64,000 nt of DNA from Candidatus Nanoarchaeia archaeon (lineage in GTDB: Archaea; Nanobdellota; Nanobdellia; Woesearchaeales; GW2011-AR4). Of the stretch, positions 2,968 through 54,498 are shown piece by piece. The notes under the pieces are model-generated. The model did no database searches. It was not told the origin of the DNA and saw nothing but the letters and a program-made list of their open reading frames with translations. The stretch spans positions 22,168-86,167 of the forward strand of contig DATDYS010000013.1 of the NCBI GenBank assembly GCA_035288925.1, read 5' to 3'. The translations under genes were made by a program, and so were the position numbers. Position 1 is the stretch's first letter. The number at the start of each line of letters is the position of its first letter.

Positions 2968-2968
2968 T

Positions 2969-35524: not shown

Positions 35525-36652
35525 ATGGACACCATAAATGCGAAGATAAAATCAAAGGAATACGATTACCAGATTTTCGTAGGCAGCTCTATCCTAAACG
35601 AACTGGCAGATTTTATTAAAAAAAATCACAGCGGAAAGAAAGTTGCAGTCATAATGGGAGAGCACACCAGCAGGCTGCACAAGCCAAAGCTCGGCAAAAT
35701 ATTAAGCGACCTAAACCCATTGTTCATAACAGTCCCTTCAGGAGAATCTTCCAAATCCAGGGAAATGAAGGAAGAAATAGAGGACAATTTATTAGACCAT
35801 AAGTTCGGAAGGGATTCTTTAATCATAGCAATTGGCGGCGGAGTAATCGGAGATTTAGCCGGATTCGTGGCATCGACTTTCAACAGGGGGATTCCGGTAA
35901 TTCATGTGCCGACTACTTTATTGGCAATGGCAGACTCATCCATCGGCGGGAAAACGGCGATAAACACAAAGCACGGAAAGAATTTAATCGGAACTTTCCA
36001 CCAGCCCGATGCGGTATTTGTTGACATGGATTTTCTGGAAACGCTGCCGGATGACGAATTCAAAAGCGGATTGGGAGAAATCATAAAGCAGGGAATAATA
36101 CAAGACAAAGAACTGTTCAATTTTCTGGAAAAACACTGCAAGGAAATTCTTGAAAGAAAAAAAGACGTCCTGCAGCATATAATAAAGCGCTCAATTGAAT
36201 TAAAAAAGCAGGTTTTTGAATTGGACTCTCATGAAATGGGTTTGAGGCAGATTCTGAATTTCGGGCACACTTTCGGGCATGCTTTGGAAGCATATTACAA
36301 TTACAAGATAAAGCACGGATTTGCAGTAGCCATAGGAATGGTTGTAGAAGCAAGAATTTCAGCAATGACAAATAGTCTAAAGGAAAATGAGGAAGAAAGA
36401 ATCAGAAACATGATTAAAATATTCGGGTTTCCCATGTCTGATTCCGCCGGCACTTCAAAAATAATGGAACTTATGGTATCGGACAAGAAATCAAAAGGAA
36501 ACCGGCCAAGGTTTGTCTTGATTGACAGAATAGGAAAAGCAAAAGAAAAAGACGGCAGTTTCTCGTTTGAAGTTGACAGCAAGGTCGTAGAAGAAGCGAT
36601 AGAAAAAAGCAAAGATGAGTATGATTCAAAAACCAATCAGTTAATAAAATGA
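35525..36652 (+). CDS. aroB: 3-dehydroquinate synthase
   Basis: The ORF track starts at 35477. The likely start is MDTINAK at 35525, which falls inside the conserved leader block. Motifs GGGVIGDLAGF and the metal-binding His region. Confidence 0.85.
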   Translation: MDTINAKIKSKEYDYQIFVGSSILNELADFIKKNHSGKKVAVIMGEHTSRLHKPKLGKILSDLNPLFITVPSGESSKSREMKEEIEDNLLDHKFGRDSLIIAIGGGVIGDLAGFVASTFNRGIPVIHVPTTLLAMADSSIGGKTAINTKHGKNLIGTFHQPDAVFVDMDFLETLPDDEFKSGLGEIIKQGIIQDKELFNFLEKHCKEILERKKDVLQHIIKRSIELKKQVFELDSHEMGLRQILNFGHTFGHALEAYYNYKIKHGFAVAIGMVVEARISAMTNSLKENEEERIRNMIKIFGFPMSDSAGTSKIMELMVSDKKSKGNRPRFVLIDRIGKAKEKDGSFSFEVDSKVVEEAIEKSKDEYDSKTNQLIK

Positions 36653-39600: not shown

Positions 39601-39921
39601 GAGAATATAAAATCATTGGCAAGGCAGGCTGATGTAATAATCAACACAACCAGTTTGGGGATGACGCCATTTGAAAACGGATGCGCCCTGGAAGAAGATG
39701 AATTGCCGGAAGGAAAGATTGTCATGGATGTTGTCTACAAGCCGGTTATCACAAAACTTATTAAGCTTGCGCAAAAAAAGAAATGCAGGACAATCACTGG
39801 CGACAGAATGCTTATATACCAGGCAGTAAGGCAATTTGAATTATGGACGAAAATAAATCCTGGATTTGAAAATATGGAAAAAGAACTGGCAAAGGAAATT
39901 AATAAAAATAAAAAACAATAA
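36649..39921 (+). CDS. tetrafunctional shikimate-pathway fusion: EPSP synthase, shikimate kinase (AroK-type), 3-dehydroquinate dehydratase (type I), shikimate dehydrogenase. AROM-like domain order
   Basis: 1090 aa. The EPSPS N-terminal ~420 aa carry LGNSGT-like GDSGTLLRF. P-loop kinase IGYRGAGKTS. Type I DHQase segment ICAVITAD...LRLDF. SDH segment with GAAVTIPHK and GAGGAARAVIYGL. Overlaps the aroB stop by 4 nt. Confidence 0.8.
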   Translation: MIEINSVQNLDAEISIPGSKYIANRLLIICALANGTSVLKNVPDNEDINNSIKALQQFGIEIEKNKDNLTITGTGKLKAPNNEINVGDSGTLLRFITAFSALAKGNTKITGSKRIQERPISDLLKSLSDLGIKSNSKNGNAPLTITGGNLDGGKTKIKGSISSQFISALLLISPFAKNDVEITIDGELVSSGYVDLTINLMKEFGVNVERSGSRFTVKANQKYKSRNFTIPSDWASANYFLAAAAIVPGTVTINNLDFKSKVPESGFYRVLEKMGCKVLLDNNSIKITGTDKLKPIDADMGSMPDSAQTLAVAALFADGTTKIRNIGNLKFKESDRINDTATELRKLGADVEVKNDELIINNNLKKLNFKSAIIDSHNDHRMAMSFAVVGLRIPGIKIDNPECANKSFPQFFAKLNKITAKKQKNIVLIGYRGAGKTSTAMELSKLTGMNIISTDEEISKKVEMPIADFIDKNGWDEFRKAENEVIESLKDADGVIIDCGGGVVENENNIKLIKQNGVVFWLRAQVSVLADRIKDTKNRPSITGKKSFIDEIDEVLRKRIPFYRKACDFEIDTSNENPLQIAQLIIKLYSIQPVKTRICAVITADNVKDALNDMKKAESSDLVELRLDFIKNIDENKVKELMNNKKQRIIATLRPVKFGGLFKGEKKGRFALLNKAIELGADFVDVEFGSEIAADIIKNKKSSKIIISHHDFNETPSLEKLESIYSQIDKLNPDFVKIVTAANSINDNFIIFDLLKGKNNLISFCMGQKGEISRILAPKFGSAVTYCSINQNKESAPGQITQEEMNNPYHVGLINPQTNVIGIIGEFAENSMSKYMHNPNFVKNNANFVYVPFKVSPNELSEFMDNFKKFNFKGAAVTIPHKETIIGLIHNVNETADEIGAVNTLVRDDEKIIGYNTDYYGAVESLKEKLNSKGKKVLVIGAGGAARAVIYGLKKEGAEIIIINRTGDKAKELAENFKVSFDKFENIKSLARQADVIINTTSLGMTPFENGCALEEDELPEGKIVMDVVYKPVITKLIKLAQKKKCRTITGDRMLIYQAVRQFELWTKINPGFENMEKELAKEINKNKKQ

Positions 39922-42931: not shown

Positions 42932-43049
42932 CAGGGAACATTTATAAACAAAAAATCAATTCGAGTTCTTATCACGCCGGGGTCGCATAACCTGGTCAAT
43001 ATTCGAAGATGTTGAATCTTCAATATTCAGGAAATTGCGCAAGCCTGGA

Positions 43050-43125
43050 AAGCTTGTTTCCGAAAGGATATCTGGGTTCAAAACAACCTTTTCTTTTGCA
43101 AAGAAAAGCTTGACCAAAAGAAAGG
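43050..43125 (-). promoter_or_regulatory. inverted orphan copy of the trpB/aroB leader element
   Basis: The reverse complement reads CTTTCTTTTGGTCAAGCTTTTCTTTGCAAAAGAAAAGGTTGTTTTGAAC, near-identical to 31806-31850. Confidence 0.5.
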
Positions 43126-43262
43126 CACTCACGAGGTGGTGGGGCAAACCCCACTGGCTTAATGTTGCTTTCACACGGAAAGGTTGCTGAAATTCCCAGC
43201 TCCGGCGTTTTTAATTTTAATTCTTTGAGAGGTTATAGGCCAATTTTCAAAAGATATTACTG

Positions 43263-43970
43263 CTAAAATCCCCTGTTATTCCCCCATAAATGAATGTGCA
43301 GCCTATCGCTGAAATTAAAACCATGCTCTTTGCATAGTTCAATGAGCCATCTGCTTCTTTCTCTTATAGTTTCACTGTTATCCCCTTCAGGCATCAAGTA
43401 AACTTTGCCGGCTGGAATTGCAAGCTGGGTTCGCAGTTCAGAGACATCATCTAAATCCTCTGGAGATGCTACCACAAATTTTAATTGGTAATCATGCCTT
43501 GCCATAAATTTAGATAGTGCTTCAAGGTTTCTCATTAACCTTCTGTGCCTTGCCTCATACCTAGATCCTAAAGGAATACTGTTTTCCATTTTTGGTGATA
43601 TGCTCATATAAATTTGAGTCGGCAATTCCTTAAATATACTTCCATTGGTCTCCACTGTAACCTGATAGCCTGATTCTGTAAGCATTCTGGCAAGCTCAGG
43701 AAGATCCTTTTGTAAAAATGGTTCACCGCCTGTAATTACAACATGCCTTGCCGGGGTTTTTGCTGCCTGCCCCACTAATTCTTCCAATGGCACAAAACTG
43801 CCCTTAGGCTCCCACGATGTGTAGGGCGTGTCGCATTTTGTAACTTCCCCAGTTCTTTGGTCTCTCCACTCGCATCTTAAATTGCAGCCGGAACTTCTGA
43901 TAAAAAAAGATGGCACGCCTATATGTTTTCCTTCGCCCTGCACCGAGTAAAAAGTTTCTGCAACGTACAT
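43263..43970 (-). CDS. queE: 7-carboxy-7-deazaguanine synthase (radical SAM)
   Basis: 235 aa. FIRSSGCNLRCEW...C cluster, TGGEP. Confidence 0.85.
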   Translation of the reverse strand: MYVAETFYSVQGEGKHIGVPSFFIRSSGCNLRCEWRDQRTGEVTKCDTPYTSWEPKGSFVPLEELVGQAAKTPARHVVITGGEPFLQKDLPELARMLTESGYQVTVETNGSIFKELPTQIYMSISPKMENSIPLGSRYEARHRRLMRNLEALSKFMARHDYQLKFVVASPEDLDDVSELRTQLAIPAGKVYLMPEGDNSETIRERSRWLIELCKEHGFNFSDRLHIHLWGNNRGF

Positions 43971-44086
43971 AAACCTAAGGATAGGCGACCAATATTTAAA
44001 TTTTTTTAATTATTACTACTTGGGAGTTGAATCACACATAAGATTTATAAGTTAATCATCATTAATATCACTTTCTTGGGGGGTTT

Positions 44087-45043
44087 ATGCAGTATGAAAA
44101 ATTAGTTGAAATATCTGACAGAGTGCTCGTTTCGCCTAGGGACATAGAGCAAATGCTCTTTATCTTAAGAGGAGGCCCTACAAAACAGATTGAGATTCAA
44201 AGGAGACTGGGTTTTCCAAAATCGGCTATGCAAATTCTGCCGGTTGAGCTTAGCGATTTAATAACCAGGGAAGGGGACCGGTTCAGCTTAAGACAGAACG
44301 CTCAAGATGAAGTCGATGAGCTGCAAAGCAGAAGGGCGGGCTTTGATGCGCAGGTTGAGGCAAGATTAAGCTATGCAGTTGAAGAATTAAAATCGGTAGA
44401 GCAATCGAGGGACAGGTCTTACAGAAATTTTGACCAGTTCAGGGCTGTTCCGGAATCAACTGTTGCTAAAGTAGGCCTGATATATCAGCGCGGTGATTTG
44501 GAGTCAAGAGATATAATCCTTATTGGTGACAATGATTTAGCTGCGGTTGCGGCAGGATTTACAGGCGTTCCAAAAAAAATAACTGTCCTAGACATAGACA
44601 AAAAAATTCTTGATTTATTGGAGGAATTAAACAGGCAGCACTCTCTAAATATAGAAACTGTATGCTACAACGCGAAAAGCCCATTTCCGAACAGCTTAAA
44701 ATCACAATATTCTGTTGCAGTCACAGACCCGCCTTATACGCCTGAAGGGATCTCGCTGTTTGTGTCAAGATGCATTGGGGCATTGGGGAGAAAAAATGGA
44801 GTTATTTACCTTTCATATGGGTATAGCCCTAGAGCTGCTGAAAGGGCATTGCCAATTCAGGACGCTCTGACTAAAATGGGGCTGGTGATTGAGGAAGTAA
44901 AGCCGGGCTTCACAAAATATTATGCTGCACAGTCAATCGGATCATCATCTGCTCTTTACGTGTGTAGGATGACGCCAAGGTCTAAACCAATTATCAGCGG
45001 AAAGTTTACCGGTGACATTTATACAAAAACAAGGCCTAAGTGA
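44087..45043 (+). CDS. DUF43 / BpsA-like aminopropyl- or methyltransferase-fold protein with N-terminal winged helix
   Basis: 318 aa. GDNDL in place of GxGxG; TDPPYT motif. Family assignment is from recall of DUF43/BpsA motifs only. Confidence 0.45.
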   Translation: MQYEKLVEISDRVLVSPRDIEQMLFILRGGPTKQIEIQRRLGFPKSAMQILPVELSDLITREGDRFSLRQNAQDEVDELQSRRAGFDAQVEARLSYAVEELKSVEQSRDRSYRNFDQFRAVPESTVAKVGLIYQRGDLESRDIILIGDNDLAAVAAGFTGVPKKITVLDIDKKILDLLEELNRQHSLNIETVCYNAKSPFPNSLKSQYSVAVTDPPYTPEGISLFVSRCIGALGRKNGVIYLSYGYSPRAAERALPIQDALTKMGLVIEEVKPGFTKYYAAQSIGSSSALYVCRMTPRSKPIISGKFTGDIYTKTRPK

Positions 45044-46759
45044 ATGTTTATGCAGGAAGAATTTATAATCGGAATAAATGGATGGCAAGTCAGAGGCCAT
45101 GATGCTTCAGCAGCATTGATTAAATGCAAAACTGATGGCTTAGTGGAAATAGTTGCGGCTGCGGAGGAAGAACGATTTTTGGGTGTTAAGCATGCATATG
45201 ACACTTTGCCACTACACGCTGTCCAATTCTGCTTAGACGCAGCAGGAATTCAGCCGGAGGATTTAAGTTCTATTGCAGTTCCTTTTGAATATCCAAAAAT
45301 ATATGAAACACGGGGCTTAAGGTTTGATGTCAGTAATTCAAAATTAAGGAAAATCCTGTTTCCAAATCTTACACAAGCCAATAAGCCAGAAATATTTTAC
45401 GTGAATCACCACCTTGCCCATGCAGTCAGTGCATTTGCCCCATCTATGTCAAACTCCTCTCTTGTAATGGTTATAGACGGGCAAGGGGAATTTGAATCCT
45501 CAACGATATGGAGTGTAGGTAACAGAGGAAAACAAATTCAAAAAATTGCATCTTCAGATATTGCATCTTCACTAGGGTATTTTTATGAAGCCCTGACAGA
45601 ATTTATAGGATTTCAGCCGAACGAACCGGGAAAAACAATGGGCCTTGCCCCATATGGAAATCCGGAGAGATATAAAGGGAAGATTAATAATTTATTTGTT
45701 GTTAATGGAGGGGTAATCACGGTGCAGGGCCCGGAATTAAAATTTGGTTTGGCTGTCGGAGATTATCTTCCAATAGATGAGCAGCATCAGGTAAGATTGT
45801 TCTGGTTAAAAAAATTTTCTGAGATAACTGGAATGAACCCTAATGACAACTCCAGGAAGTATTCATTTAGAAATTTCCCTAAAGGCTATGCAGATTTGGC
45901 TGCATCTGGACAAAGAGTTCTTGAAGAAGTTGTAGTTACATTAGCGGCTCAGGCACAGAATTTAACACAATCAAAAAATGCCGGCATTGCAGGCGGTGTT
46001 GGATTAAATTGTGTAGCAAATGGGCTAATCGCTGAATCAGGGCTTTTTGACAGAATATATGTTCAGCCCGCATCAAACGATGCCGGCACATCCTTGGGGG
46101 CGGCATTAGAGGTAGCCAGACAAAAAGGTTATGGTATTCACAATGTGCCTATGGCCCCTTACCTGGGCTTAAGTGTTAGTAATCAGGATATACTAAAAAT
46201 TTTGACAAGATCCAATTATAATTTTATTATTTGTGATGACGCCTACAGATTTATCGCTGACCTAGTAGCAAATGGTAAGGTGGTTGGATTATTCCAGGGA
46301 AGAGCAGAATTTGGCCCTAGGGCATTAGGCAACAGGTCATTTATTGCAGATGCCAGGCAGGCAAGCATGCAGGATTATATTAATCAGCATGTAAAGGGCA
46401 GAGAAGAAGGCAGGCCGCTTGCACCTGCGGTTCTGGATTCAGATTCTGAGTACTTATTTGGCCAAACTGTAAATGCGCCGCATATGACAGTGGCATATCA
46501 AATCCAAGAGGGATTGGACGCAGTCACGCATGTTGACGGCACGACAAGGCCGCAGATAGTAACTGCTGCATCCAATAGCTCGTTTTACCGTCAGCTGCAG
46601 GCGGTTCAGAATAAGATAGGGATTGGTGCAGTAATCAACACTTCATTAAATTTGAATGGCCCGATAGTAAATACGCCTCAGCAGGCACTGAGATTATTGG
46701 AAACAACGGGAGCTGAGGCAATTGTATTCAACAACAGATATTTGGTGAGGCGAAAATGA
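45044..46759 (+). CDS. carbamoyltransferase (NodU/CmcH/TobZ family)
   Basis: 571 aa. HDASAAL, HHLAHAVSAF. ASKHA/Kae1-like N domain with a YrdC-like C-terminal region. Confidence 0.75.
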   Translation: MFMQEEFIIGINGWQVRGHDASAALIKCKTDGLVEIVAAAEEERFLGVKHAYDTLPLHAVQFCLDAAGIQPEDLSSIAVPFEYPKIYETRGLRFDVSNSKLRKILFPNLTQANKPEIFYVNHHLAHAVSAFAPSMSNSSLVMVIDGQGEFESSTIWSVGNRGKQIQKIASSDIASSLGYFYEALTEFIGFQPNEPGKTMGLAPYGNPERYKGKINNLFVVNGGVITVQGPELKFGLAVGDYLPIDEQHQVRLFWLKKFSEITGMNPNDNSRKYSFRNFPKGYADLAASGQRVLEEVVVTLAAQAQNLTQSKNAGIAGGVGLNCVANGLIAESGLFDRIYVQPASNDAGTSLGAALEVARQKGYGIHNVPMAPYLGLSVSNQDILKILTRSNYNFIICDDAYRFIADLVANGKVVGLFQGRAEFGPRALGNRSFIADARQASMQDYINQHVKGREEGRPLAPAVLDSDSEYLFGQTVNAPHMTVAYQIQEGLDAVTHVDGTTRPQIVTAASNSSFYRQLQAVQNKIGIGAVINTSLNLNGPIVNTPQQALRLLETTGAEAIVFNNRYLVRRK

Positions 46760-47640
46760 GCGACGAAACAAGAAATTCAGTAGTCAGATTAAATCAGCAT
46801 TTTTTAAGGGATAGTTCTGCTCTCGAGCAGATTGTTTCATTATCGGAAATCGAGCCGCAGGAAACAGTATTGGAAATAGGGCCCGGGCAAGGTTCTTTGA
46901 CTGGCAGAATAGCTGAGCGTGCTAAAAAAGTAGTAGCTATTGAAGCAGACGCAAGATTAAAAGCCGATTTGGATGCACTTCAAGCCCAGTATCCGAATGT
47001 CAGCGTGGTATATGGCGATGCAATTGAAATGAGATTTCCAAAGTTTGATAGGATGGTAGCTAACATACCGTTTAACATCACAGAGCCATTGATTACAAAA
47101 TTAATGGGGGAGAAATTTGTTGGCGCTTATTTACTGGTGGGGGAGAGTTTTGCAGATAATTGCACGACCATGGGAGGCTACACGACCAGGCTGGGATTAT
47201 TGACCAGGGCTTATTTTAAGACGGAGCAGCTGCTTCAAGTTCCAAAAGAAAGCTTTGATCCAATTCCGTCAACTGACGGTGTTTTAATATCACTCAGTCC
47301 AGTTAAAAAAAGCGATCTTCGGGAAGATTTTCCGCTTTACATGCTGCACTGCATGTGGGATCAAAGAACCAAACCATTGAAAGATGCTCTTTCATCTGCA
47401 TTGTACCAATATGCCTCAGGTAAAATTACGGGGGAGATAGACGTAAGCAGGGTGATAAGAGATTTTGAAAGGGATCACTCCGGAATTATAAATAGAAGAG
47501 TTGATGCGATAGGAAACACTGAATTTTTAGATTTATATCACGGATTGTCCGGAATGAAACTAAATAAATTATTTGGAAGGCACAAGCCAAGAGGCGGTGC
47601 GCAAAACTGGAGAAAAACTTATGCAGAACACCTTAGATAA
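46756..47640 (+). CDS. rRNA adenine N6-dimethyltransferase family protein (KsgA/Dim1/Erm-like)
   Basis: 294 aa. QHFLRD, VLEIGPGQGSLT, NIPFNITEP. Overlaps both neighbours by 4 nt. Confidence 0.7.
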   Translation: MSDETRNSVVRLNQHFLRDSSALEQIVSLSEIEPQETVLEIGPGQGSLTGRIAERAKKVVAIEADARLKADLDALQAQYPNVSVVYGDAIEMRFPKFDRMVANIPFNITEPLITKLMGEKFVGAYLLVGESFADNCTTMGGYTTRLGLLTRAYFKTEQLLQVPKESFDPIPSTDGVLISLSPVKKSDLREDFPLYMLHCMWDQRTKPLKDALSSALYQYASGKITGEIDVSRVIRDFERDHSGIINRRVDAIGNTEFLDLYHGLSGMKLNKLFGRHKPRGGAQNWRKTYAEHLR

Positions 47641-48298
47641 AATGGCCAACATAACTGTTTTGGCTCCGCACATAGACGATGAGATTATCGGAGCAGGAGG
47701 AAGCATAGCAAAGCATATTGATTTGGGCAACGCAGTTAGGGTTATCTATGTGCATTCAGGCGATACCCATGATGAAGTTCAAGTAAGAGAAAGCGAAGCT
47801 GCCAGAGTGGCAGATTTTCTTGGAATAAAGGATTCACATTTCTTAAGGCAGAGGCCAACATCAATCTCCAATAAGTCAGTTGAAGAAATAGTCGGACTAT
47901 TAAGAAAACAATCAACGGATTTTCTGTATGCCCCCCATCTGGATGATGGAGATACTGAGCACGTTGCAGTTTCTCAGCTCGCCCACAGGCTTTTGTGGCT
48001 GACAAACGGAGAATATTTTAAAGAACAGAATGGGCAAGGACGCTTGAAAGGATTGTTTTTGTATGAAGTTCACAGGCCAATTAGCCAAGTACATTATTTG
48101 GAAGACATTACAAAATATGAAAATAAAAAAATTGCTGCAATCAGATTATTTGAATCACAAGTAGCGAGGGTTAGATATGATTTAAGCGCTGTTCACCTCA
48201 ATAGGTACAGGGGCATAACTACCGAAGTTGCGCCTTCTGTCGAATCTTTCCAAATTGCAGGCGCAAGAAATTTTTTTGAACTTTTCAGGAGCAGATAA
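47573..48298 (+). CDS. LmbE/PIG-L family N-acetylglucosaminyl deacetylase
   Basis: LAPHIDDEIIGAGGSIAKH; the HxDD(E) zinc motif typical of PIG-L. Confidence 0.7.
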   Translation: MEGTSQEAVRKTGEKLMQNTLDKMANITVLAPHIDDEIIGAGGSIAKHIDLGNAVRVIYVHSGDTHDEVQVRESEAARVADFLGIKDSHFLRQRPTSISNKSVEEIVGLLRKQSTDFLYAPHLDDGDTEHVAVSQLAHRLLWLTNGEYFKEQNGQGRLKGLFLYEVHRPISQVHYLEDITKYENKKIAAIRLFESQVARVRYDLSAVHLNRYRGITTEVAPSVESFQIAGARNFFELFRSR

Positions 48299-48300
48299 TA

Positions 48301-49098
48301 ATGGACTTGTCTATTGTAATACCAGTTCACGATGATATAAGGGTTGAAAGATGCGTGAATAGCATTGACGAAAATGTTGAAGTTGTGCTTGCACTGAACA
48401 GGCCAACTGAAGAAGTTAAAGGAATTGCCAAAAAATTGGGAGTTAAATCAGTTAATGTTCCGGAACAAAATCTGGGCATGTGTTATAATTATGGCATGGA
48501 CGCTTCCACCTCTGAAAATGTTCTTTTTATGGACAGTGATTGTGTTTTTGCTCCGCGCACAATCGAAAGAGTTTATAGTGCAAAAACATCGCATCCGGAT
48601 GCGCTGATAAGAGGAAATGTAGTATATCTCACAGATTCTATTCAGTCCAGAATAACAAAAGCCGGGCGCGATGTGACAACAATTAATGTCCCTTATGCAT
48701 TTATCCCACTGCTTTTATTGGACAAAGGTGTTTTTTCCAGGATAAATGACGGGCGCAGATTTGCAGAAGATGTGGGCTGGACCGCGGATTATGAATTTGA
48801 ACTCCGAAGATCAAAAGCAGGAATACCTTTAGTACAGGTTCCAGAAGCCAGGATATTCCATGACCCCATGACTATTGCCTCCGATTTAAGGAGCGCTTTC
48901 AAATATGGCACTGGAAAAAGGATAAGGCATGAAAGGACAGGCGAACACACCAATTTCCTTGAAGTGTTGAAAGAGCCAATACTCAGAGGTTTTAGGGAAG
49001 GCGGATTTGTTGCTGGAGCTTATTTGATTGTATGGAAATCGGCTTTATATTCTGGCTACTATTCACAAAAATATGGATTAAACCAAACTAAAAGGTGA
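48301..49098 (+). CDS. glycosyltransferase family 2
   Basis: SIVIPVHDD and DSDC (DxD) motifs. GT-A fold. Confidence 0.7.
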   Translation: MDLSIVIPVHDDIRVERCVNSIDENVEVVLALNRPTEEVKGIAKKLGVKSVNVPEQNLGMCYNYGMDASTSENVLFMDSDCVFAPRTIERVYSAKTSHPDALIRGNVVYLTDSIQSRITKAGRDVTTINVPYAFIPLLLLDKGVFSRINDGRRFAEDVGWTADYEFELRRSKAGIPLVQVPEARIFHDPMTIASDLRSAFKYGTGKRIRHERTGEHTNFLEVLKEPILRGFREGGFVAGAYLIVWKSALYSGYYSQKYGLNQTKR

Positions 49099-49103
49099 TT
49101 TAA

Positions 49104-50372
49104 ATGAATCCAAGAAATATGGAAGAATTACGGAACTTAACTTTAAAGGATGCTGTTGTTGCAGTCACGGCTGATGATTCAGCAATCGATAACACATTAA
49201 TTAAGCATGCGAGAGCCACTGGAAGAAAATCTTTTTTGCTGTCTTTCAGGCAAAACTCAAATGTCAGAAGCGGTTCTATCATAGAAGACAGTGTAGCATA
49301 TCGCCAGTTTTTTACGCTTGATGATATTATAAACAGGGTAAGCTCAGGAACTTCTTCAGAACCAGAGGAAGTTAAAAGCACATTTGGATATTTTCTTCTT
49401 CTTTATTCATTAGGCGTAGCCAGAGCAGAATCCATGGCAGCTTCCAATTTAGTGCTGCCGGATAATATATTTCCAGCAGGTGTAAACAATTTAGGGCATT
49501 TTTACAATGTTTTGCAGAATCTGACTAATGAAGGAACAAGCAGAGACACAAACATTGCCGTAAAACTTCTGCTTACAGAAAAGCCAAAGTTGCATTACGG
49601 AAAAAGATACTTGTCTCCTGACAAAGTTGCCGCATTGATTTCCGGCGGAACAGACAGCGTGGGCGTGTCATTTATAGAACACAGATTGGGGAAAACTGTT
49701 TTGCCGGTGCAGGTTATATATGACCAAGCGGCCAGGCATCAGGAATTGTGGTGCGTTGACAGAGTTGCTGAAGATTTGGGAATAAAAGCTGATGATTTAT
49801 GCATAGTTTATCTTCCGATGCTGAAAAATTTTGGCGCTTCCGGCCTTTTGCGGGATGATGTGCAAATAAATGCGCAGAACACAAAAATAGAATATGTTCC
49901 GTTTAGAAATACTGTACTTCTGGCTATTGCAATAATGCGGGCTGAATTAGTTGGCGCGAAGTATGTTGCCATAGGCGCAAATCACGATGATACTTTAGCA
50001 CCCGATGGGACTCCACAATATGTAAAAGCAATAAATGAAGTCATTCAGGCAGTTGATGGGCAGGTTCCGTCAGTAATAGCCCCTCTTCTGGGATTTGGAG
50101 GAAAGCCGGAAATCGTAAGAACCGGGCTTGATTTGGGAGTTAATTTTTCCCATACATGGTCATGCCACGCATATGTTCCTCCTCCGGAAGTTGGGCTTGA
50201 TGCAAAATCCTGCGGCACCTGCGGAAATTGTGCAACAAGATATTCTGCTTTCGAGATGCTTGGGCTCAAAGACCCTGTAGGATACAAGGAAATTCCAAAA
50301 CTGAGAACCAAGTGGGCCGGGCCGCAGGGAAATTATGAATCTCTGAGAAGTGCCCTTGGAATCAGGAAATAA
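49104..50372 (+). CDS. QueC-like PP-loop ATPase (7-cyano-7-deazaguanine synthase family) with a ~190-aa N-terminal extension
   Basis: 422 aa. SGGTDS PP-loop, VPFRN, C-terminal SCHAY...CGTCGNCATR zinc motif as in QueC. The N-terminal 190 aa have no recognisable motif. Confidence 0.65.
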   Translation: MNPRNMEELRNLTLKDAVVAVTADDSAIDNTLIKHARATGRKSFLLSFRQNSNVRSGSIIEDSVAYRQFFTLDDIINRVSSGTSSEPEEVKSTFGYFLLLYSLGVARAESMAASNLVLPDNIFPAGVNNLGHFYNVLQNLTNEGTSRDTNIAVKLLLTEKPKLHYGKRYLSPDKVAALISGGTDSVGVSFIEHRLGKTVLPVQVIYDQAARHQELWCVDRVAEDLGIKADDLCIVYLPMLKNFGASGLLRDDVQINAQNTKIEYVPFRNTVLLAIAIMRAELVGAKYVAIGANHDDTLAPDGTPQYVKAINEVIQAVDGQVPSVIAPLLGFGGKPEIVRTGLDLGVNFSHTWSCHAYVPPPEVGLDAKSCGTCGNCATRYSAFEMLGLKDPVGYKEIPKLRTKWAGPQGNYESLRSALGIRK

Positions 50373-51111
50373 CTTTTGATTTTTTCATTATTAAAAGATA
50401 CCTGCAGGAGCCGGTCTTAATTCCAAGCTTATAACTGAATTTCTTTTTTATTATTTTCAAAAAAGGCATATCTTTTTTTAAATTGAAGCCCGGGATTATT
50501 GGCGTATTTTCCAAGAGAAAAATCAAATCAGGCAATTTATAATATTCAGTTGAGTGATAATGATATTTTACTGATACATTAAAACCGGCATCTTTAGCTT
50601 TTTTGATGTACTCATCTATTAATTTTCCGTGCTTTTTGCAGTAAGACTGGCCCCTTCCAAATATGTCTTTAATGTTTTGCTTATCCCTTTCCCCTACTTG
50701 TTGCGTTATCAGCAGCCCGCCTTCTTTCATTACTCTGTAAGCCTCTTTGAAATTTATTGGAGCGTGCCTGCTTGCAATAATGTCAAAAGTTTTATTTCCA
50801 TAAGGAACCTTATTGTTGTCGCCAATTTTGAATTCTGCATTCTTTAGCTTAACATTTTGTTTTGCTTTTGCTATCATAGATTTCGAGTTATCTATCCCGC
50901 AAACTCTCTTGCATTTTTTTGCAAAGGGAATAATTTTCTCTCCGCTTCCGGTTCCCAAGTCAAGCAAAATGGAATTTTTAGTAATATATTTTCCAACAAC
51001 TGCTGTAAAATCCCACTTCTGATTCTTAACAGCCACCCCCTTATCTAATTTTGAGAAATCCCATCCGATTCTTTTTCCCACTGAATCATAAAATTCCTTT
51101 TCGCGCGTCAT
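50362..51111 (-). CDS. class I SAM-dependent methyltransferase
   Basis: ILLDLGTGSGE motif I. Confidence 0.75.
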   Translation of the reverse strand: MTREKEFYDSVGKRIGWDFSKLDKGVAVKNQKWDFTAVVGKYITKNSILLDLGTGSGEKIIPFAKKCKRVCGIDNSKSMIAKAKQNVKLKNAEFKIGDNNKVPYGNKTFDIIASRHAPINFKEAYRVMKEGGLLITQQVGERDKQNIKDIFGRGQSYCKKHGKLIDEYIKKAKDAGFNVSVKYHYHSTEYYKLPDLIFLLENTPIIPGFNLKKDMPFLKIIKKKFSYKLGIKTGSCRYLLIMKKSKVIS

Positions 51112-51221
51112 AATTTAAAATAATAGTTAGTTATTATATAAATTTTTATCATTTGCTATGGGAAGCAACCTTTTTAATTAATAATTCTCCTGACGAAAAT
51201 ACGACAAAGCCCTTTCTAAAT

Positions 51222-51327
51222 TAAATAAGTATTTAAATAAGTACTAAAATAAGTAAATTCTGTTTTCAGTAAGAATTTCAAACCACAAGACTTATAAATA
51301 AGTATTTTATTAAGTAATAAAATAAGT
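51222..51327 (+). promoter_or_regulatory. array of five exact AAATAAGTA 9-mers (51222, 51235, 51247, 51296, 51319) upstream of a small AbrB-like gene
   Basis: Read directly. Confidence 0.6.
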
Positions 51328-51330
51328 AGA

Positions 51331-51498
51331 ATGGTAGAATTCAAAAGAAAACTGTATAGGAGAGGCTCGAGCTTTGAGACGACTATCCCTATGCCGCTTC
51401 TGTTTGCTCTCGACAGGAAAAAAAAGTATAACGTTGTTTTTTCGTATGATGGGGAATCAAACAAGTGGTTTTTGAAGTTTGAAGAAATGGGAAAATAA
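51331..51498 (+). CDS. small AbrB/SpoVT-like protein (55 aa); not in the ORF track
   Basis: Hand translation: MVEFKRKLYRRGSSFETTIPMPLLFALDRKKKYNVVFSYDGESNKWFLKFEEMGK. RRGSSFETTIP resembles the AbrB-type swapped-hairpin motif. Confidence 0.45.
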   Translation: MVEFKRKLYRRGSSFETTIPMPLLFALDRKKKYNVVFSYDGESNKWFLKFEEMGK

Positions 51499-51533
51499 AA
51501 ATTATAAAAAACAAAACAAACGAGGTGGATTAA

Positions 51534-51872
51534 ATGGGCAGGCGCTTTGAAGAAGTTATAGACGTGCTGGATTATGATGAATTGATGCGTTTTAAGTCTG
51601 ACCTGGACAGCGGGGCTGTAACTATCAAGAAACTGATGGAGGAAAAAATAAAGAAGAAGTTAAAAGAGCATGAGAAAATATGCGCCACGTGCTCGAACAC
51701 TTTGAACTTCTACAAGTCAAATAATTACACGATTGTATTCGGCCCCGATGATTTCAAGAAAAAAGCCAGCTTCTGCGGGCTGGACTGCCTGGAATATTTT
51801 ATCATAAAGCTAAAAGAGATGAATGACAAGCCGAAAGAAGACAACGTAAGCAACGCCGGCAGTTACATGTGA
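51534..51872 (+). CDS. small zinc-ribbon-like hypothetical protein
   Basis: 112 aa. CATCS...CGLDC cysteine pairs. Confidence 0.4.
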   Translation: MGRRFEEVIDVLDYDELMRFKSDLDSGAVTIKKLMEEKIKKKLKEHEKICATCSNTLNFYKSNNYTIVFGPDDFKKKASFCGLDCLEYFIIKLKEMNDKPKEDNVSNAGSYM

Positions 51873-51876
51873 AAGA

Positions 51877-54498
51877 ATGCACAACAAGCCCATAGAGCAG
51901 GTATTGAGGGAACTAAACACTTCAAATAATGGGCTGTCCCAGCAGGAAGCCGAGGAAAGGTTAAAGCAATACGGCTTCAATGAATTAAAGGAAGGAAAAA
52001 AGATTTCTCCGCTGGAAATTTTCATAAGCCAGTTCAAAAGCATCGTTGTGTGGATTTTAATTGTTGCAACGGTTATTTCAGCATTTCTAGGCGAGTACGT
52101 TGATTCGATTGTCATTTTCTCCATTATAATACTGATTGCCCTGCTGGGATTTTTCGAGGAGTACAGAGCCGAAAAAGCCATAGAGGCGCTGAAAAAGCTG
52201 GCGTCTTTAAGGGCAACTGTCATCAGGGACAGCCAGAAAAAGGAAATTGATGCAAAAAGCCTTGTGCCCGGCGATGTGATAATCCTGCAGACAGGCGACA
52301 AGGTGCCTGCCGATGCGCGCCTGATTGAGGTTTTCAACCTGCAGACACAGGAAGCCGCGCTTACCGGCGAATCCCAAGCCGTGAAGAAAAATATATCCCA
52401 GCTGGAAGAAAAAACAAGCATAGCCGACAGGCACAACATAGTTTTCTCCAGCACAATCGTCGTAAGCGGAAGGGCTAAGGCAGTAGTGATAGCAACGGGC
52501 ATGCAGAGCGAGATAGGAAAAATTGCCAAGATGATAGAGGAAGTAAAGCCCGAGCCGACGCCACTTCAAAAAGATATGGACCAATTGGGAAAATTTATCG
52601 GCACGATAACCCTCATTATAGCGGCGCTCATTTTTGCGGCTGGCATGCTGATTCGCCATTCCAACTGGGTTGACATGCTCCTTGTGTCAGTGTCGCTGGC
52701 AGTGGCAGCTATTCCGGAAGCGCTGCCGGCAGTCGTCACCATCTCCCTCGCCCTCGGCACCCAAAAAATGCTGAAGAGGAATGCGCTCATAAGAAGGCTG
52801 CCAAGCGTGGAAACTCTTGGCTCGACCACTGTAATATGCACCGACAAAACAGGCACGCTCACGGCCAACCAGGTGACTGTGAGAAAATTATACACTAATG
52901 GCAAGATAATAGATGCAACCGGCGTAGGCTACGGGACAAAGGGAATCTTTCTTTACAAAAACAAGCCGGTTCCGCCCGAAGAAATCGAACTTCTGCTGAG
53001 AATCGGAATACTGAACAATAATTCCGAGATAAAAGAGGGCAAGGTCATAGGCGATCCAACGGAAGCGGCATTGATTGTGAGCGCGGCCAGGCTTGGGCTG
53101 ATAAAAGAAGATTTTGATATTGAGTACAGAAGGATTGATGAAATTGAATTCACAAGCGAAAGAAAAATGATGACCACCATACACGGGCATCACGGCGAAA
53201 ATATTTCTTATGTCAAAGGCGCTCCGGAAGTTGTCCTGAAACTCTGCAATTTCATCTACATGAACGGGGAAATCAAAAAGCTGACAGCCGACATGAGGGA
53301 AGATATAATTGAGGCAAACAGGCAGTTTGCCGAAGGGGCGTTAAGAGTGCTGGGATTCGCCTATAAAACAATTGTTGACTCAAGCCCGGAAAAAAACCTG
53401 ATTTTTGTCGGCCTGCAGGGAATGATTGACCCGCCCAGGGAAGAAGTCAAAATTGCAATCGAGAAATGCAAGAAAGCGGGCATCAGGGTAATCATGATTA
53501 CTGGAGACCATGAGATAACAGCAAGGGCAATTGCAAAGGAGATTGGGCTGACTGGAAAAACAATAACCGGCGAGAAGCTTGACGAAATAAATAATTTGGA
53601 TTCTTTGGTTGAAGATATATCCATTTTTGCCAGGGTAAATCCGGAGCACAAGATTAAGATTGTCGATGCCCTGAAGAAAAAGGGCCACATTGTTGCGATG
53701 ACAGGGGATGGCATAAATGACGCGCCTGCATTAAAAAAGGCCGACATCGGCGTTGCGATGGGAATTTCAGGCACGGATGTAAGCAAAGAAGCAAGCGCAA
53801 TGATTCTTACTGATGATAATTTTGCATCAATTGTAAATGCAGTGGAGGAAGGAAGGGGGATTCATGACAATATAAAAAAATATTTTGCGTTCCTAATATC
53901 CGGCAATATAGGGGAAGTGCTGATAATATTCATTTCAATAATAATGGGCATTCCGCTCCCTCTGACCGTGACGCAGATTTTGCTCATAAATCTAGCAATG
54001 GACGGGCCTCCTGCCATATCACTTTCAGCGGAGCCTTCTGAGCCGGATGTGATGAGCAGGAAGCCAAGAAATCAAAAAGAGCCTATATACAGCAGAATTG
54101 GGAATTATGTATTTTTATTTCCTGCTGTGATGGTGGTGGCTGTGTTGCTGGTTTTCATTTATTTTTACCGCGCAGACGGCCTTGTAAAGGCGCAGACCAT
54201 GGCGTTCCTGACAATCATAATGTTCAGGCTCTTTGAAGTTTTCGCCTGCAGGTCGCTGACAAAAAATGTTTTCAAGATGGGATTGTTCAAAAACAGGTGG
54301 CTTGTGGCTGCAGTTGCGTCGTCATTTGCCATAGTTGTACTGACATTGTACGTTCCGCTCATGAACAAAATATTTGACACTATGCCCATAAGCATCCTTG
54401 AATTTCTTTTTATAATCCTGCTATCAAGCCTAGGGGCCATTGCAATTGAAATTTCAAAATTCCTTGGCAATAGGGGAAAAGCTGCTGTTAACATTTAA
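51877..54498 (+). CDS. P-type cation-transporting ATPase (type II, Ca2+/PMCA-SERCA-like)
   Basis: 873 aa. TGES, CTDKTGTLT, MITGD, GDGINDAPAL. Confidence 0.9.
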   Translation: MHNKPIEQVLRELNTSNNGLSQQEAEERLKQYGFNELKEGKKISPLEIFISQFKSIVVWILIVATVISAFLGEYVDSIVIFSIIILIALLGFFEEYRAEKAIEALKKLASLRATVIRDSQKKEIDAKSLVPGDVIILQTGDKVPADARLIEVFNLQTQEAALTGESQAVKKNISQLEEKTSIADRHNIVFSSTIVVSGRAKAVVIATGMQSEIGKIAKMIEEVKPEPTPLQKDMDQLGKFIGTITLIIAALIFAAGMLIRHSNWVDMLLVSVSLAVAAIPEALPAVVTISLALGTQKMLKRNALIRRLPSVETLGSTTVICTDKTGTLTANQVTVRKLYTNGKIIDATGVGYGTKGIFLYKNKPVPPEEIELLLRIGILNNNSEIKEGKVIGDPTEAALIVSAARLGLIKEDFDIEYRRIDEIEFTSERKMMTTIHGHHGENISYVKGAPEVVLKLCNFIYMNGEIKKLTADMREDIIEANRQFAEGALRVLGFAYKTIVDSSPEKNLIFVGLQGMIDPPREEVKIAIEKCKKAGIRVIMITGDHEITARAIAKEIGLTGKTITGEKLDEINNLDSLVEDISIFARVNPEHKIKIVDALKKKGHIVAMTGDGINDAPALKKADIGVAMGISGTDVSKEASAMILTDDNFASIVNAVEEGRGIHDNIKKYFAFLISGNIGEVLIIFISIIMGIPLPLTVTQILLINLAMDGPPAISLSAEPSEPDVMSRKPRNQKEPIYSRIGNYVFLFPAVMVVAVLLVFIYFYRADGLVKAQTMAFLTIIMFRLFEVFACRSLTKNVFKMGLFKNRWLVAAVASSFAIVVLTLYVPLMNKIFDTMPISILEFLFIILLSSLGAIAIEISKFLGNRGKAAVNI

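Follow-up and report, generated by a model that had tools for sequence, protein, structure and literature searches.

What a locus of a tiny DPANN archaeon of symbiotic type makes when genes of 7-deazaguanine synthesis bracket genes for sugar, alkyl and carbamoyl transfer, and whether these genes belong together at all, was explored for eight ORFs in a 64-kb stretch of DNA, referred to here as the window. An earlier note on this DNA had interpreted them as a candidate 7-deazapurine glycoside or modification gene cluster, an interpretation that the present analysis supports. The features are:

43263..43970, minus strand: QueE-like enzyme of the radical SAM family (7-carboxy-7-deazaguanine synthase type), oriented divergently to the operon; Pfam Radical_SAM
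43971..44086, no strand: divergent AT-rich intergenic region, 116 bp, with putative promoters of queE and the operon
44087..45043, plus strand: BpsA-like (DUF43) N-alkyl, probably aminopropyl, transferase; Pfam BpsA_C, E 1e-48; extra N-terminal domain of ~95 aa
45044..46759, plus strand: TobZ/NodU-type carbamoyltransferase; Pfam Carbam_trans_N and Carbam_trans_C
46756..47640, plus strand: KsgA/Erm-family methyltransferase of a cluster-specific clade; Pfam RrnaAD
47642..48298, plus strand: PIG-L/LmbE-family sugar N-deacetylase; Pfam PIG-L, E 6e-17; start uncertain
48301..49098, plus strand: GT2 glycosyltransferase (GT-A fold), small and of soluble type, from a rare clade; Pfam Glycos_transf_2
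49104..49631, plus strand: N-terminal extension (~176 aa) of the QueC-like protein, a degenerate duplicate of the PP-loop domain; hhalign, AF2
49632..50372, plus strand: QueC-family PP-loop/zinc domain with a non-canonical active site; Pfam QueC, E 2e-37
50362..51111, minus strand: convergent, strongly basic (pI 9.8) SAM methyltransferase of class I; Pfam methyltransferase families

The positions and strands given in the earlier note agree exactly with the coordinates, and its domain assignments (QueE, DUF43/BpsA, carbamoyltransferase, KsgA/Erm, PIG-L, GT2, QueC-like and SAM methyltransferase) were all recovered, every one of the eight ORFs scoring above the Pfam gathering score. The que-type and KsgA-type matches all fell under the NCBIfam curated cut-offs, so that these proteins are divergent members of their families. 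The junctions are as tight as it described: bpsA-like and carbamoyltransferase genes abut (0 nt), carbamoyltransferase and ksgA-like overlap by 4 nt, and gaps of 1 nt (ksgA-like/PIG-L, with ATG at 47642; sequence inspection also offers ATG 47621 and TTG 47573), 2 nt (PIG-L/GT2) and 5 nt (GT2/queC-like) follow, before an 11-nt convergent overlap between queC-like and the methyltransferase. The spacing and sequence of the plus-strand genes indicate one translationally coupled operon, separated from queE by the divergent AT-rich spacer of 116 bp. An N-terminal extension of the QueC-like protein is indeed present, but it measures ~176 aa and not the 190 aa first given. Pfam scans of the window ORFs place the locus among core housekeeping genes and outside any defence island.

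In related archaeal MAGs the orthologues are clustered, and the scattering that the earlier note had named as a refutation of its reading is not seen. Eight or more distinct lineages of DPANN archaea retain the gene set (44–85% identity) with unrelated flanks, two of them differing in gene order, and the same genes recur between unrelated flanks in Woesearchaeota/Nanoarchaeia lineages. An Aenigmarchaeota locus (L094) has these genes too, but differently ordered and oriented, with FolE2-QueD-QueE in addition, and in L095 the cluster adjoins an MFS transporter. Because the same gene set occurs in many independent loci with differing flanks, the cluster is a conserved unit and more than a chance grouping. 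More remote versions are found in ultra-small CPR bacteria, Firmicutes and Actinomycetota and share a core of QueC-like protein, GT2 and TobZ-like carbamoyltransferase, with or without PIG-L. Their additions, among them hallmarks of secondary metabolism, include ABC or MFS exporters, an AMP-binding (adenylating) enzyme, extra glycosyltransferases, a diaminopropionate-type PALP and ornithine-cyclodeaminase pair, and a DegT (sugar) aminotransferase, GFO/IDH/MocA oxidoreductase or SAM decarboxylase. Only five archaeal species representatives were matched among 185,579 species genomes, a sparse phyletic pattern that fits an accessory trait, and no viral relatives were found. No TGT/DpdA-family gene occurred within 10 kb of any Pfam-annotated locus or among the Pfam-scanned ORFs of the window.

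The QueE-like protein has QueE models as its five best NCBIfam matches (77–95 bits, all under cut-off) and three solved QueE enzymes (4njg, 5tgs, 6nhl) as its best PDB matches; its cluster motif, CX3CX12C, is unusual, and orthologues (66–79% identity) occupy the same position in four loci (L001, L031, L035, L038). The absence of queD and folE from the window, claimed earlier, was confirmed: neither tblastn, for which the queries were two QueD proteins and a single FolE and FolE2 each, nor Pfam scans of the window's remaining ORFs, down to a length of 150 aa, found either gene. This gap is explained by sister loci, as queD and folE2 belong to the cluster in L001, L003, L013 and L094. In loci of the Shapirobacteria type, a precursor transporter of the YhhQ family takes the place of de novo synthesis together with a QueF-like protein; such salvage resembles provision for an indispensable constituent of the cell more than for an antibiotic.

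The QueC assignment is confirmed by Pfam (aa 177–386 of the ORF) and by NCBIfam (TIGR00364, 97.5 bits against a cut-off of 150). Among the residues invariant across the 15 aligned family members (alignment A1) are S180, G181, G182 and D184 (SGGxDS loop), VPFRN, and C354, C370, C373 and C376, and the protein retains both the PP-loop and the zinc site. APDG stands in place of YPDC, and His in place of Tyr after the first Cys; set against the canonical QueC signature, two of the four residues that E. coli QueC requires to make preQ0 are substituted (the YPDC Tyr and the Tyr that follows the first zinc Cys), and the YxQ(x)5E spacing is that of Cap9, a CDG-amine ligase (PMC13329287). The best fold matches of the model are Cap9 (9nto_B, top) and QatC (9y02_B), the latter covering the whole length at a TM of 0.49, whereas in sequence the domain stands closer to QueC of B. 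subtilis, at 86 bits, than to Cap9, at 48 bits, and has no match to QatC. PADLOC returned a generic QueC match and generic methyltransferase matches on the locus, and nothing else. The N-terminal extension aligns to the QueC domain (hhalign probability 86%, E 5e-6) and is modelled by AF2 as a confident alpha/beta domain; it is without the SGGxDS loop, has conserved motifs of its own (VARAES, EGTS) and finds relatives in only 5 of 1.84 billion representatives at E<=1e-3. It is a degenerate copy of the protein's own PP-loop domain.

Among the tailoring enzymes, the BpsA-like protein best matches N4-bis(aminopropyl)spermidine synthase (5xnc, 104 bits; motif TDPPY/TDPPE) in the PDB, and an AdoMet decarboxylase gene lies directly 3' of its orthologue in CPR relatives, with 13 bacterial loci so paired. 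The carbamoyltransferase, whose gene is found in most related loci, aligns end-to-end with the tobramycin O-carbamoyltransferase TobZ (E 2.5e-86, residues 8–562 against 9–565). The PIG-L protein has as its best PDB matches a B. cereus LmbE-related protein, archaeal diacetylchitobiose deacetylases and BshB. The GT2 is rare, with only 23 relatives at E<=1e-8 (word-indexed search, 5.8-billion-protein database) and no match in a sequence search of the PDB; its AF2 model (pLDDT 91.7) has as best fold match AvpGT, the GT2 nucleoside glycosyltransferase of tubercidin (PMC11959488), an argument weakened by its being only marginally better than the teichoic-acid and mucin GalNAc transferases close behind (the UDP-HexNAc enzymes TarP, TarS and GalNAc-T2). 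The KsgA-like protein falls in a clade of ~22 full-length proteins (169–656 bits), beyond which ordinary RsmA matches at no more than 112 bits with partial coverage, while the KsgA and Erm NCBIfam models score under cut-off. This clade is marked by a C-terminal tail, HKPRGGAxNWR, and a NIPF motif, and all five members whose locus was placed lie in the cluster (L003, L011, L038, L094, L095). The gene belongs to this specialised clade and is distinct from housekeeping KsgA. Both KsgA domains are kept and the best solved relatives are rRNA dimethylases, which makes an RNA substrate somewhere in the pathway plausible. Orthologues of the convergent methyltransferase (44–79% identity) adjoin the QueC-like gene in eight loci (L001, L003, L007, L010, L013, L031, L035, L038), and one is found inside the rearranged L094 cluster.

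Judged by its enzyme families, it is moderately probable that the cluster is self-contained and encodes a small-molecule pathway leading to a carbamoylated, N-alkylated hexosamine conjugate of 7-deazaguanine. FolE2 and QueD, both presumably encoded outside the window in the present genome, would convert GTP to CPH4, from which QueE would make 7-carboxy-7-deazaguanine (CDG). Next, the QueC-like enzyme would adenylate the CDG carboxylate and then form the nitrile (preQ0) or, more likely given the altered pocket, an amide with an amine, and its dead N-terminal duplicate may take the part of a second subunit, giving a pseudo-dimer within one chain, and so shape the site where the acceptor binds. 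The GT2 would move an N-acetylhexosamine from a UDP-sugar onto the deazaguanine, which would give an N-glycoside like that of huimycin, or onto a carrier, and the PIG-L enzyme would take off the acetyl group, exposing the sugar amine. That amine or another could be methylated and aminopropylated, the BpsA-like enzyme using decarboxylated SAM; the second methyltransferase would add one more methyl group, and the TobZ-like enzyme would O-carbamoylate a sugar hydroxyl via carbamoyl-AMP. The KsgA/Erm-like enzyme may dimethylate an amine of the product or methylate the producer's own rRNA (self-protection). The expected product is a free, small, nitrogen-rich, polycationic carbamoylated amino-sugar conjugate. 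Support for this small-molecule reading comes from the closest characterised relatives of the tailoring enzymes, which act on small molecules (TobZ, LmbE/BshB, chitobiose deacetylases, BpsA and, by fold, AvpGT), from the secondary-metabolism genes of distant clusters, the BpsA-like/AdoMet decarboxylase pairing, the non-canonical QueC-like protein and the sparse distribution, and from the lack of an insertion enzyme nearby. It is weakened by the lack of any transporter or regulator in the window's own cluster, by the salvage genes of Shapirobacteria-type loci and by the plausible RNA substrate noted for the KsgA-like protein; moreover, secondary metabolism is seldom found in reduced genomes such as those of the DPANN and CPR hosts.

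Those same reduced genomes would suit RNA hypermodification, in which an ArcTGT/TGT encoded elsewhere inserts preQ0 or preQ1 into tRNA and the cluster enzymes decorate the base there; we regard this as rather unlikely. Vertebrate tRNA queuosine is galactosylated by a GT2-family enzyme, and the KsgA-like protein belongs, over its full length, to a family of RNA methyltransferases, the convergent methyltransferase has a pI of 9.8, and the YhhQ-type transporter and QueF-like protein of some CPR loci recall queuosine salvage. Against this, no Pfam-annotated neighbourhood holds a TGT-family gene, clear relatives of the core genes adjoin genes for ABC/MFS exporters, for adenylating enzymes and for the building of amino acids, a very sparse distribution is out of keeping with a trait tied to translation, and the QueC-like active site is altered although canonical QueC would suffice for preQ0 supply. 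To our knowledge, the substrates of TobZ-type carbamoyltransferases and PIG-L deacetylases are small molecules and glycans only. Such a modification would be the archaeal/CPR counterpart of glycosylated queuosine.

The top fold matches and the Cap9-like YxQ(x)5E spacing (PMC13329287) would fit a third reading, in which the QueC-like enzyme works like Cap9 and QatC and attaches CDG to an amine of a protein (deazaguanylation) within a protein-modification or defence system. This is highly improbable: the sequence scores favour B. subtilis QueC, PADLOC gave merely generic matches, the surroundings are housekeeping genes, none of CD-NTase, Cap10, QatA, QatB and QatD lies nearby, and the constant partners are sugar-handling enzymes and the carbamoyltransferase. 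A chance juxtaposition of housekeeping archaeosine queE and queC with an unrelated glycan or polyamine operon would fit the missing queD and folE, and glycan pathways commonly have GT2, PIG-L and carbamoyltransferase genes. The synteny data contradict it, and its probability is close to negligible, as the association is repeated in dozens of archaeal and bacterial loci with varied flanks and gene orders, sister loci include QueD and FolE2 in the cluster, rare cluster-specific clades are formed by each of the three proteins QueC-like, GT2 and KsgA-like, and the genes share a single, translationally coupled operon. The surface-glycan operon merely neighbouring que genes, which the earlier note had offered as an alternative, is likewise rejected, because GT2 and carbamoyltransferase travel with QueC-like, QueE, QueD and FolE across two domains of life and several gene orders.

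For the small-molecule reading, the bacterial deazapurine-glycoside precedent named in the earlier note is real in huimycin, a GlcNAc N-glycoside of methylated preQ0 with the sugar on the deazaguanine 2-amino group (PMC7439116), and the literature yielded no described archaeal counterpart, as that note had supposed; a 2026 survey lists 160 deazapurine cluster families, mostly uncharacterised and in bacteria only (bioRxiv 10.64898/2026.04.15.718813). Like huimycin (and dapiramicin), made in the former case by the hui cluster of Kutzneria albida, the present pathway would combine FolE, QueD, QueE and QueC with a SAM methyltransferase and a glycosyltransferase, which in huimycin sets N-acetylhexosamine straight on the base, without ribose; a carbamoyltransferase gene lies directly 3' of that glycosyltransferase (PMC7439116), and no nucleic-acid insertion enzyme is present. 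The huimycin-family glycosyltransferases are listed as PF13439, GT4-type (bioRxiv 10.64898/2026.04.15.718813), in contrast to the GT2 here, its QueC is canonical (72% identical to ToyM), it has no deacetylase, BpsA-like or KsgA-like protein, its neighbouring carbamoyltransferase is dispensable, and its host is an actinomycete and not an archaeon. The canonical archaeosine/queuosine precursor operon (FolE-QueD-QueE-QueC) shares QueE and a QueC-family protein, with QueD and FolE2 adjacent in sister loci, but here the QueC departs from the canonical form and has double the usual length, the operon incorporates six tailoring genes, and the distribution is sparse rather than lineage-wide.

Streptothricin, according to the title of Guo 2015 (cited in PMC10156733), acquires its carbamoylated gulosamine with a guanidino-N-glycosyltransferase and an N-acetyl-gulosamine deacetylase. 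The resemblance, one of pathway logic only, extends to an N-acetylhexosamine on a guanidine-type nitrogen, followed by deacetylation and O-carbamoylation, to a cationic chain on the freed amine, and to a guanine-like head bearing a carbamoylated amino sugar; a stand-alone adenylating enzyme is matched by the one added in Firmicutes relatives. The streptothricin head is streptolidine lactam and its cationic part beta-lysine, whereas 7-deazaguanine and aminopropyl/methyl transfer are predicted here. TobZ, the tobramycin 6''-O-carbamoyltransferase, shares the two-domain Kae1-like and YrdC-like architecture and length of the present enzyme, while its acceptor is an aminoglycoside sugar hydroxyl and its host and pathway differ. 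Closest to the QueC-like enzyme in proposed chemistry are RoyL (roseomycin A), a QueC homologue that ligates CDG to amines (bioRxiv 10.64898/2026.04.15.718813), and Cap9 (type IV CBASS), both QueC-family PP-loop enzymes that pass ATP-activated CDG to an amine with no nitrile. The catalytic Tyr41, His45 and Glu48 reported for RoyL have the canonical YxQxHxxE spacing, from which the present family differs, Cap9 is a minimal enzyme of ~185 aa acting on a protein N-terminus, and neither has the dead N-terminal duplicate. For the present QueC-like protein, a CDG-amine ligase activity is inferred.

All eight open reading frames of the cluster were recovered where the earlier note had placed them, and the domain calls made there hold, as every one of them scores above the Pfam gathering score.

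Genes of the cluster, with strand and Pfam assignment
43263–43970, minus strand: QueE-like radical SAM protein (Radical_SAM)
44087–45043, plus strand: BpsA-like protein (BpsA_C/DUF43)
45044–46759, plus strand: carbamoyltransferase (Carbam_trans_N and Carbam_trans_C)
46756–47640, plus strand: KsgA-like protein (RrnaAD)
Possible start ATG at 47642, plus strand: PIG-L deacetylase (PIG-L)
48301–49098, plus strand: GT2 glycosyltransferase (Glycos_transf_2)
49104–50372, plus strand: QueC-like protein of 422 aa (QueC at aa 177–386)
50362–51111, minus strand: class I SAM methyltransferase

The operon is tightly packed: its genes abut at the first junction (0 nt), overlap by 4 nt at the second, and are spaced by 1 nt at the third, provided that ATG 47642 is the PIG-L start, then by 2 nt and by 5 nt. 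The QueC-like and methyltransferase genes overlap convergently by 11 nt. An AT-rich spacer of 116 bp separates queE from the operon. The only recognisable feature of the 330-bp gap at 42932–43262 is a terminator-like hairpin. A sigma-70 promoter scan was uninformative, the host being an archaeon. In NCBIfam searches the top ranks were taken by five QueE models for the radical SAM protein, by KsgA and Erm for the RrnaAD protein, and by QueC for the last plus-strand gene; all of these scores fall below the curated cut-offs, marking the three proteins as divergent members of their families.

The surrounding window is archaeal core chromosome. Upstream of the cluster are complete trp and shikimate/aromatic amino-acid operons (Pfam), downstream are genes for a P-type ATPase, Elp3, RsmB, TFE-alpha, PolX, and GAPDH, and genes for ThrRS, SRP54, and EF-1alpha occur elsewhere in the window. 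The shikimate genes include a 1090-aa fusion of EPSP synthase, shikimate kinase, dehydroquinase I, and shikimate dehydrogenase (36649–39921, plus strand), a domain order matching that of the four final domains of eukaryotic AROM, here in a DPANN-type archaeon; 3-dehydroquinate synthase is encoded separately upstream (35477–36652), overlapping the fusion by 4 nt. The Elp3 homologue (54524–56527, plus strand; 667 aa) matches Pfam ELP3_N at aa 4–76, with its radical SAM match confined to aa 353–409, and the roughly 270 unexplained residues between the two matches could be an insertion. A Bat/aerotolerance-like operon occupies the window's left end (1007–8050, minus strand); its genes encode a MoxR AAA ATPase, a DUF7502 protein, and proteins of VWA and BatA-like type. 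An Rfam scan of the window returned two tRNAs outside the cluster and no other RNA element. These tRNA genes (20942–21026, 85 nt, and 22078–22201, 124 nt, both plus strand) were missed by ARAGORN and, given their lengths, probably contain introns. GC content falls to 0.37 at 50001–52000, over the convergent methyltransferase gene and the small ORFs that follow it.

Related loci, collected through the QueC-like and KsgA-like proteins, bear out the main test proposed by the earlier note, co-localisation in related archaeal MAGs. Woesearchaeota RIFCSPLOWO2_01_FULL_38_40 (L001/L009; 52–66% identity) carries the BpsA-like, carbamoyltransferase, KsgA-like, PIG-L, GT2, and QueC-like genes and the convergent methyltransferase, with QueE and QueD divergent upstream, and the gene order of L001 and the window recurs in L011 and L031 (65–85% identity). 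A Nanoarchaeota MAG (L003/L012; 45–58% identity) has the window's operon and, after it, genes for an APH-family kinase, QueD, another type of QueE, and FolE2. QueD-FolE2 is also present in L013 and contig P0013, where some tailoring genes are missing. In an Aenigmarchaeota locus (L094) the order and orientation differ, and FolE2-QueD-QueE is found with a methyltransferase, carbamoyltransferase, PIG-L, GT2, a short QueC, and two KsgA-like genes. Locus L095 has KsgA-like, QueC-like, GT2, and PIG-L genes adjoining an MFS transporter. The flanks are different in every lineage, which makes the cluster boundaries, 43263 and 51111, synteny break points. The cluster includes QueD and FolE2 in L003, L013, and L094, and QueD in L001; in the window its deazapurine core consists of QueE and the QueC-like protein only, together with six tailoring genes and no transporter or regulator gene. 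The absence of queD and folE from the 64-kb window, stated in the earlier note, was confirmed by tblastn and Pfam. No TGT/DpdA insertion enzyme was detected among the Pfam-scanned ORFs of the window or within 10 kb in the Pfam-annotated loci. By the criteria of a bacterial survey, a 7-deazapurine secondary-metabolite cluster should hold the core genes FolE, QueD, and QueE, with QueC optional, should pair tailoring enzymes with a transporter or regulator, should lack such an insertion enzyme nearby, and should yield a metabolite containing a 7-deazapurine (bioRxiv 10.64898/2026.04.15.718813).

The QueC-like protein departs from canonical QueC in ways that bear on its product. In place of a single domain of ~220 aa it has 422 aa, scores 97.5 bits against TIGR00364 (cut-off, 150.3), and has 16 relatives in a word-indexed search of 5.8 billion proteins. 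The PP-loop SGGxDS is kept (SGGTDS, aa 180–185), with S180, G181, G182, and D184 invariant in 15/15 members of a family alignment, as is VPxRN (YVPFRN, aa 264–269, also invariant). In canonical QueC (PF06508 cluster 1) the zinc motif is C(x)8CxxCxxC and an essential Tyr directly follows the first Cys (PMC13329287). Here all four zinc Cys are retained (C354, C370, C373, and C376), but the first two lie x15 apart, and a His that is invariant in the family stands directly behind the first of them (CH versus CY). The YxQxHxxE motif is represented by YDQAARHQE, a one-residue insertion relative to 3bl5 in the HMMER alignment that gives the spacing of Cap9, YxQ(x)5E; the YPDC motif is represented by APDG, of which only P300 and D301 are conserved. 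For E. coli QueC, the VPxRN Arg and the aromatic residue of YPDC are essential, and both the YPDC Tyr and the Tyr after the first Cys are essential for preQ0-dependent tRNA modification (PMC13329287).

The AF2 model of the QueC-like enzyme is confident (pLDDT 90, pTM 0.93), and its closest PDB folds are Cap9 and QatC, both protein-deazaguanylating ligases; by sequence, its nearest relative is B. subtilis QueC. Membership of QatC was rejected, as the fold is alike but there is neither a sequence match nor partner genes. The 176-aa N-terminal extension is a degenerate copy of the PP-loop domain that lacks the loop (hhalign versus the QueC domain: 86%, E 5e-6) and is near-unique in sequence (5 matches among 1.84 billion representatives). 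It has no N-terminal Cys and matches the QueC domain itself, which removed a glutamine amidotransferase, as in a GAT-QueC, from consideration. We infer that the extension forms an intramolecular pseudo-dimer and that the acceptor is altered. Amide formation appears more likely than plain nitrile synthesis, and RoyL provides a published precedent of a QueC homologue that ligates 7-carboxy-7-deazaguanine (CDG) to amines (bioRxiv 10.64898/2026.04.15.718813). Compared with RoyL by published residue numbers, the Streptomyces relatives (L024, L025, and L027) carry YGQRTASRE, and without the canonical spacing they are not obviously RoyL.

The radical SAM protein is nearest to known QueE enzymes, with three QueE structures leading its PDB matches, and its orthologue in L001 adjoins QueD. 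Its NCBIfam scores are ≤95 bits versus cut-offs of 200–300. Its cluster motif (aa 29–46) is CX3CX12C, neither the standard CX3CX2C nor the known CX14CX2C, with ten extra residues before the third Cys compared with the CNLRCxWCDT of other QueE proteins in the cluster family. The Woesearchaeota orthologue (L001) has the same ten-residue insertion.

The KsgA-like protein belongs to a clade of ~22 full-length relatives, after which scores drop sharply to ordinary RsmA; these, including Pacearchaeota RsmA, match at 26–37% identity over 57–72% of the length. Both KsgA domains are kept, and SAM motif I (LEIGPGxG) and the target-amine motif (NIPF) are conserved in the clade. The last 25 aa of the clade (proteins P0017–P0036) form a basic, glycine-rich tail, LFGGHKPRGGAxNWRxxYxxYL, that ordinary KsgA/RsmA lack. 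The separate clade, the extra tail, and a TIGR00755 score of 148 bits, below the cut-off of 171, rule out a housekeeping KsgA/RsmA/Dim1. The protein could be a self-protection rRNA methyltransferase or an amine dimethylase of the pathway.

Among the other tailoring enzymes, the carbamoyltransferase combines a Kae1-like N-domain with a YrdC-like C-domain, both above the Pfam cut-off, and matches TobZ, the enzyme that O-carbamoylates the tobramycin sugar, from end to end (residues 8–562, E 2.5e-86). The PIG-L protein is nearest to LmbE/BshB and chitobiose deacetylases. The GT2 enzyme falls in a clade of ~23 proteins (word-indexed search); its model is confident and its closest fold is AvpGT, with the UDP-HexNAc-using TarP, TarS, and GalNAc-T2 close behind. 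AvpGT, likewise of the GT2 family, naturally acts on tubercidin, a 7-deazapurine nucleoside (PMC11959488). The BpsA-like protein scores 166 bits for BpsA_C (Pfam cut-off, 27) and matches the branched-polyamine aminopropyltransferase 5xnc at 104 bits. An AdoMet decarboxylase gene lies directly 3′ of its orthologue in 13 bacterial loci, and none accompanies the gene in any archaeal locus examined. The convergent methyltransferase is unusually basic (pI 9.8; 51 K+R versus 24 D+E).

Scans with the motifs EYVPFRN and RHQExWC found 21 loci in 185,579 species genomes and 60 in the JGI metagenome-contig collection (241 million records). A tblastn presence table and the Pfam domains of recurrent unknowns resolved these into three architectures, all built around QueC-like, GT2, and carbamoyltransferase genes as their universal core. 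The DPANN type is that of the window. In the CPR type, seen in Daviesbacteria, Shapirobacteria, and others, the QueC-like gene is short and is accompanied by an SHMT-like gene, up to three KsgA-like genes, extra methyltransferases and glycosyltransferases, a DegT aminotransferase, a GFO/IDH/MocA oxidoreductase, and a BpsA-like gene with AdoMet decarboxylase directly after it; it also has either FolE-QueD-QueE or, in their place, a YhhQ-family transporter and a QueF-like T-fold protein. DPANN archaea and CPR bacteria are two groups of ultra-small putative episymbionts. The third type, in Firmicutes and Actinomycetota, has PALP and ornithine cyclodeaminase, a pair that makes 2,3-diaminopropionate in other pathways, along with an AMP-binding enzyme, ABC exporters, and, in some loci, PIG-L. 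Of the loci related to the window's cluster, L005, L014, L020, and L008 carry ABC exporters.

The short QueC form usually occurs with an SHMT-like gene, adjoining it in ~20 loci, and the long form and an SHMT-like gene were found together in 0/12 loci. A 1441-aa metagenomic protein (L052, 4386–8708, plus strand) fuses QueC-like, SHMT, and GcvT (a folate-binding aminomethyltransferase). Together, the fusion and the adjacency suggest folate-dependent one-carbon chemistry on a deazaguanine side chain in that branch. In the Shapirobacteria-type loci (L019, 8898–18147; L021, L055, L061, and L071), a YhhQ/Vut_1 transporter and a QueF-like protein replace FolE/QueD/QueE and the QueC-like gene is kept, which implies salvage of a deazaguanine precursor.

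We lean, with somewhat more belief than doubt, towards the reading that the product of the cluster is an amino-sugar conjugate of CDG or preQ0 that is free, polycationic, and carbamoylated. This reading draws on biosynthetic precedents, on the exporters and amino-acid-activating genes of the bacterial relatives, and on the absence of any transglycosylase. That same absence weighs on its main rival, hypermodification on RNA of a deazaguanine that has already been inserted, which is rather unlikely even though it draws strength from the KsgA-like gene's descent from RNA methyltransferases, from the hosts' reduced genomes, and from the salvage-type CPR loci. Protein deazaguanylation, the activity of the ligases nearest in fold to the QueC-like enzyme, is highly improbable here, as neither Pfam nor PADLOC scans found a QatA, QatB, QatD, CD-NTase, or Cap10 partner. 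Slighter still is the likelihood that the que genes and the rest of the operon are neighbours by chance, a reading against which the recurrence of the gene set in the sister loci speaks. A defence system was rejected, since the PADLOC matches are only generic (QueC, methyltransferase, and radical SAM). So was phage or Dpd-type DNA modification, as there is no TGT-family gene in the window or the Pfam-annotated loci and the viral contigs scanned hold no relative.

If the small-molecule reading is true, deazaguanine conjugated to a carbamoylated amino sugar would constitute a chemical class of its own, a new QueC chemistry would be open to test, and the locus would give rare insight into what symbionts with reduced genomes make for their own use; should the RNA reading be true instead, the product would be a new hypermodified nucleoside. 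At ~8 kb the cluster is small enough for synthesis and expression, by which either reading could be tested. A bolder and doubtful extension is that DPANN archaea and CPR bacteria hold in common, through horizontal exchange, a pathway to a ribosome-directed, streptothricin-like antibiotic, with a 7-deazaguanine head replacing the guanine mimic and the KsgA/Erm-like protein conferring rRNA self-protection. If so, archaea would have their first nucleoside-type antibiotic pathway, and organisms credited with almost no secondary metabolism would possess a chemical weapon or a tool for manipulating hosts.

Gene clusters have been confirmed by experiment for five pathways to 7-deazapurine natural products, of which four are named (toyocamycin/sangivamycin, tubercidin, and huimycin, as well as roseomycin A), all of them actinomycete, and the sole large survey covers bacteria only, with 155 of its 160 predicted families uncharacterised (bioRxiv 10.64898/2026.04.15.718813). 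A literature search for deazaguanine or QueC with DPANN or CPR returned nothing on clusters of the present kind, the described deazapurine clusters being bacterial only, and a survey of the QueC family does not describe the present QueC-like subgroup (PMC13329287). What is new here is the host range and several cluster-specific enzyme clades. DPANN archaea, too, carry a distinct enzyme set, to which CPR bacteria and gut Firmicutes have related counterparts: a duplicated, non-canonical QueC, a GT2 of a rare clade, a carbamoyltransferase resembling TobZ, PIG-L, a BpsA-like protein, and a KsgA/Erm-like protein of a private clade. Under the small-molecule reading, an N-acetylhexosamine would first be transferred and then deacetylated, with decoration of the amine thus freed and O-carbamoylation to follow. 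Huimycin has GlcNAc directly N-linked to the deazaguanine base, and in its cluster a carbamoyltransferase gene adjoins the glycosyltransferase gene (PMC7439116). The proposed order follows the same logic as aminoglycoside pathways and as streptothricin sugar assembly (Guo 2015, cited in PMC10156733).
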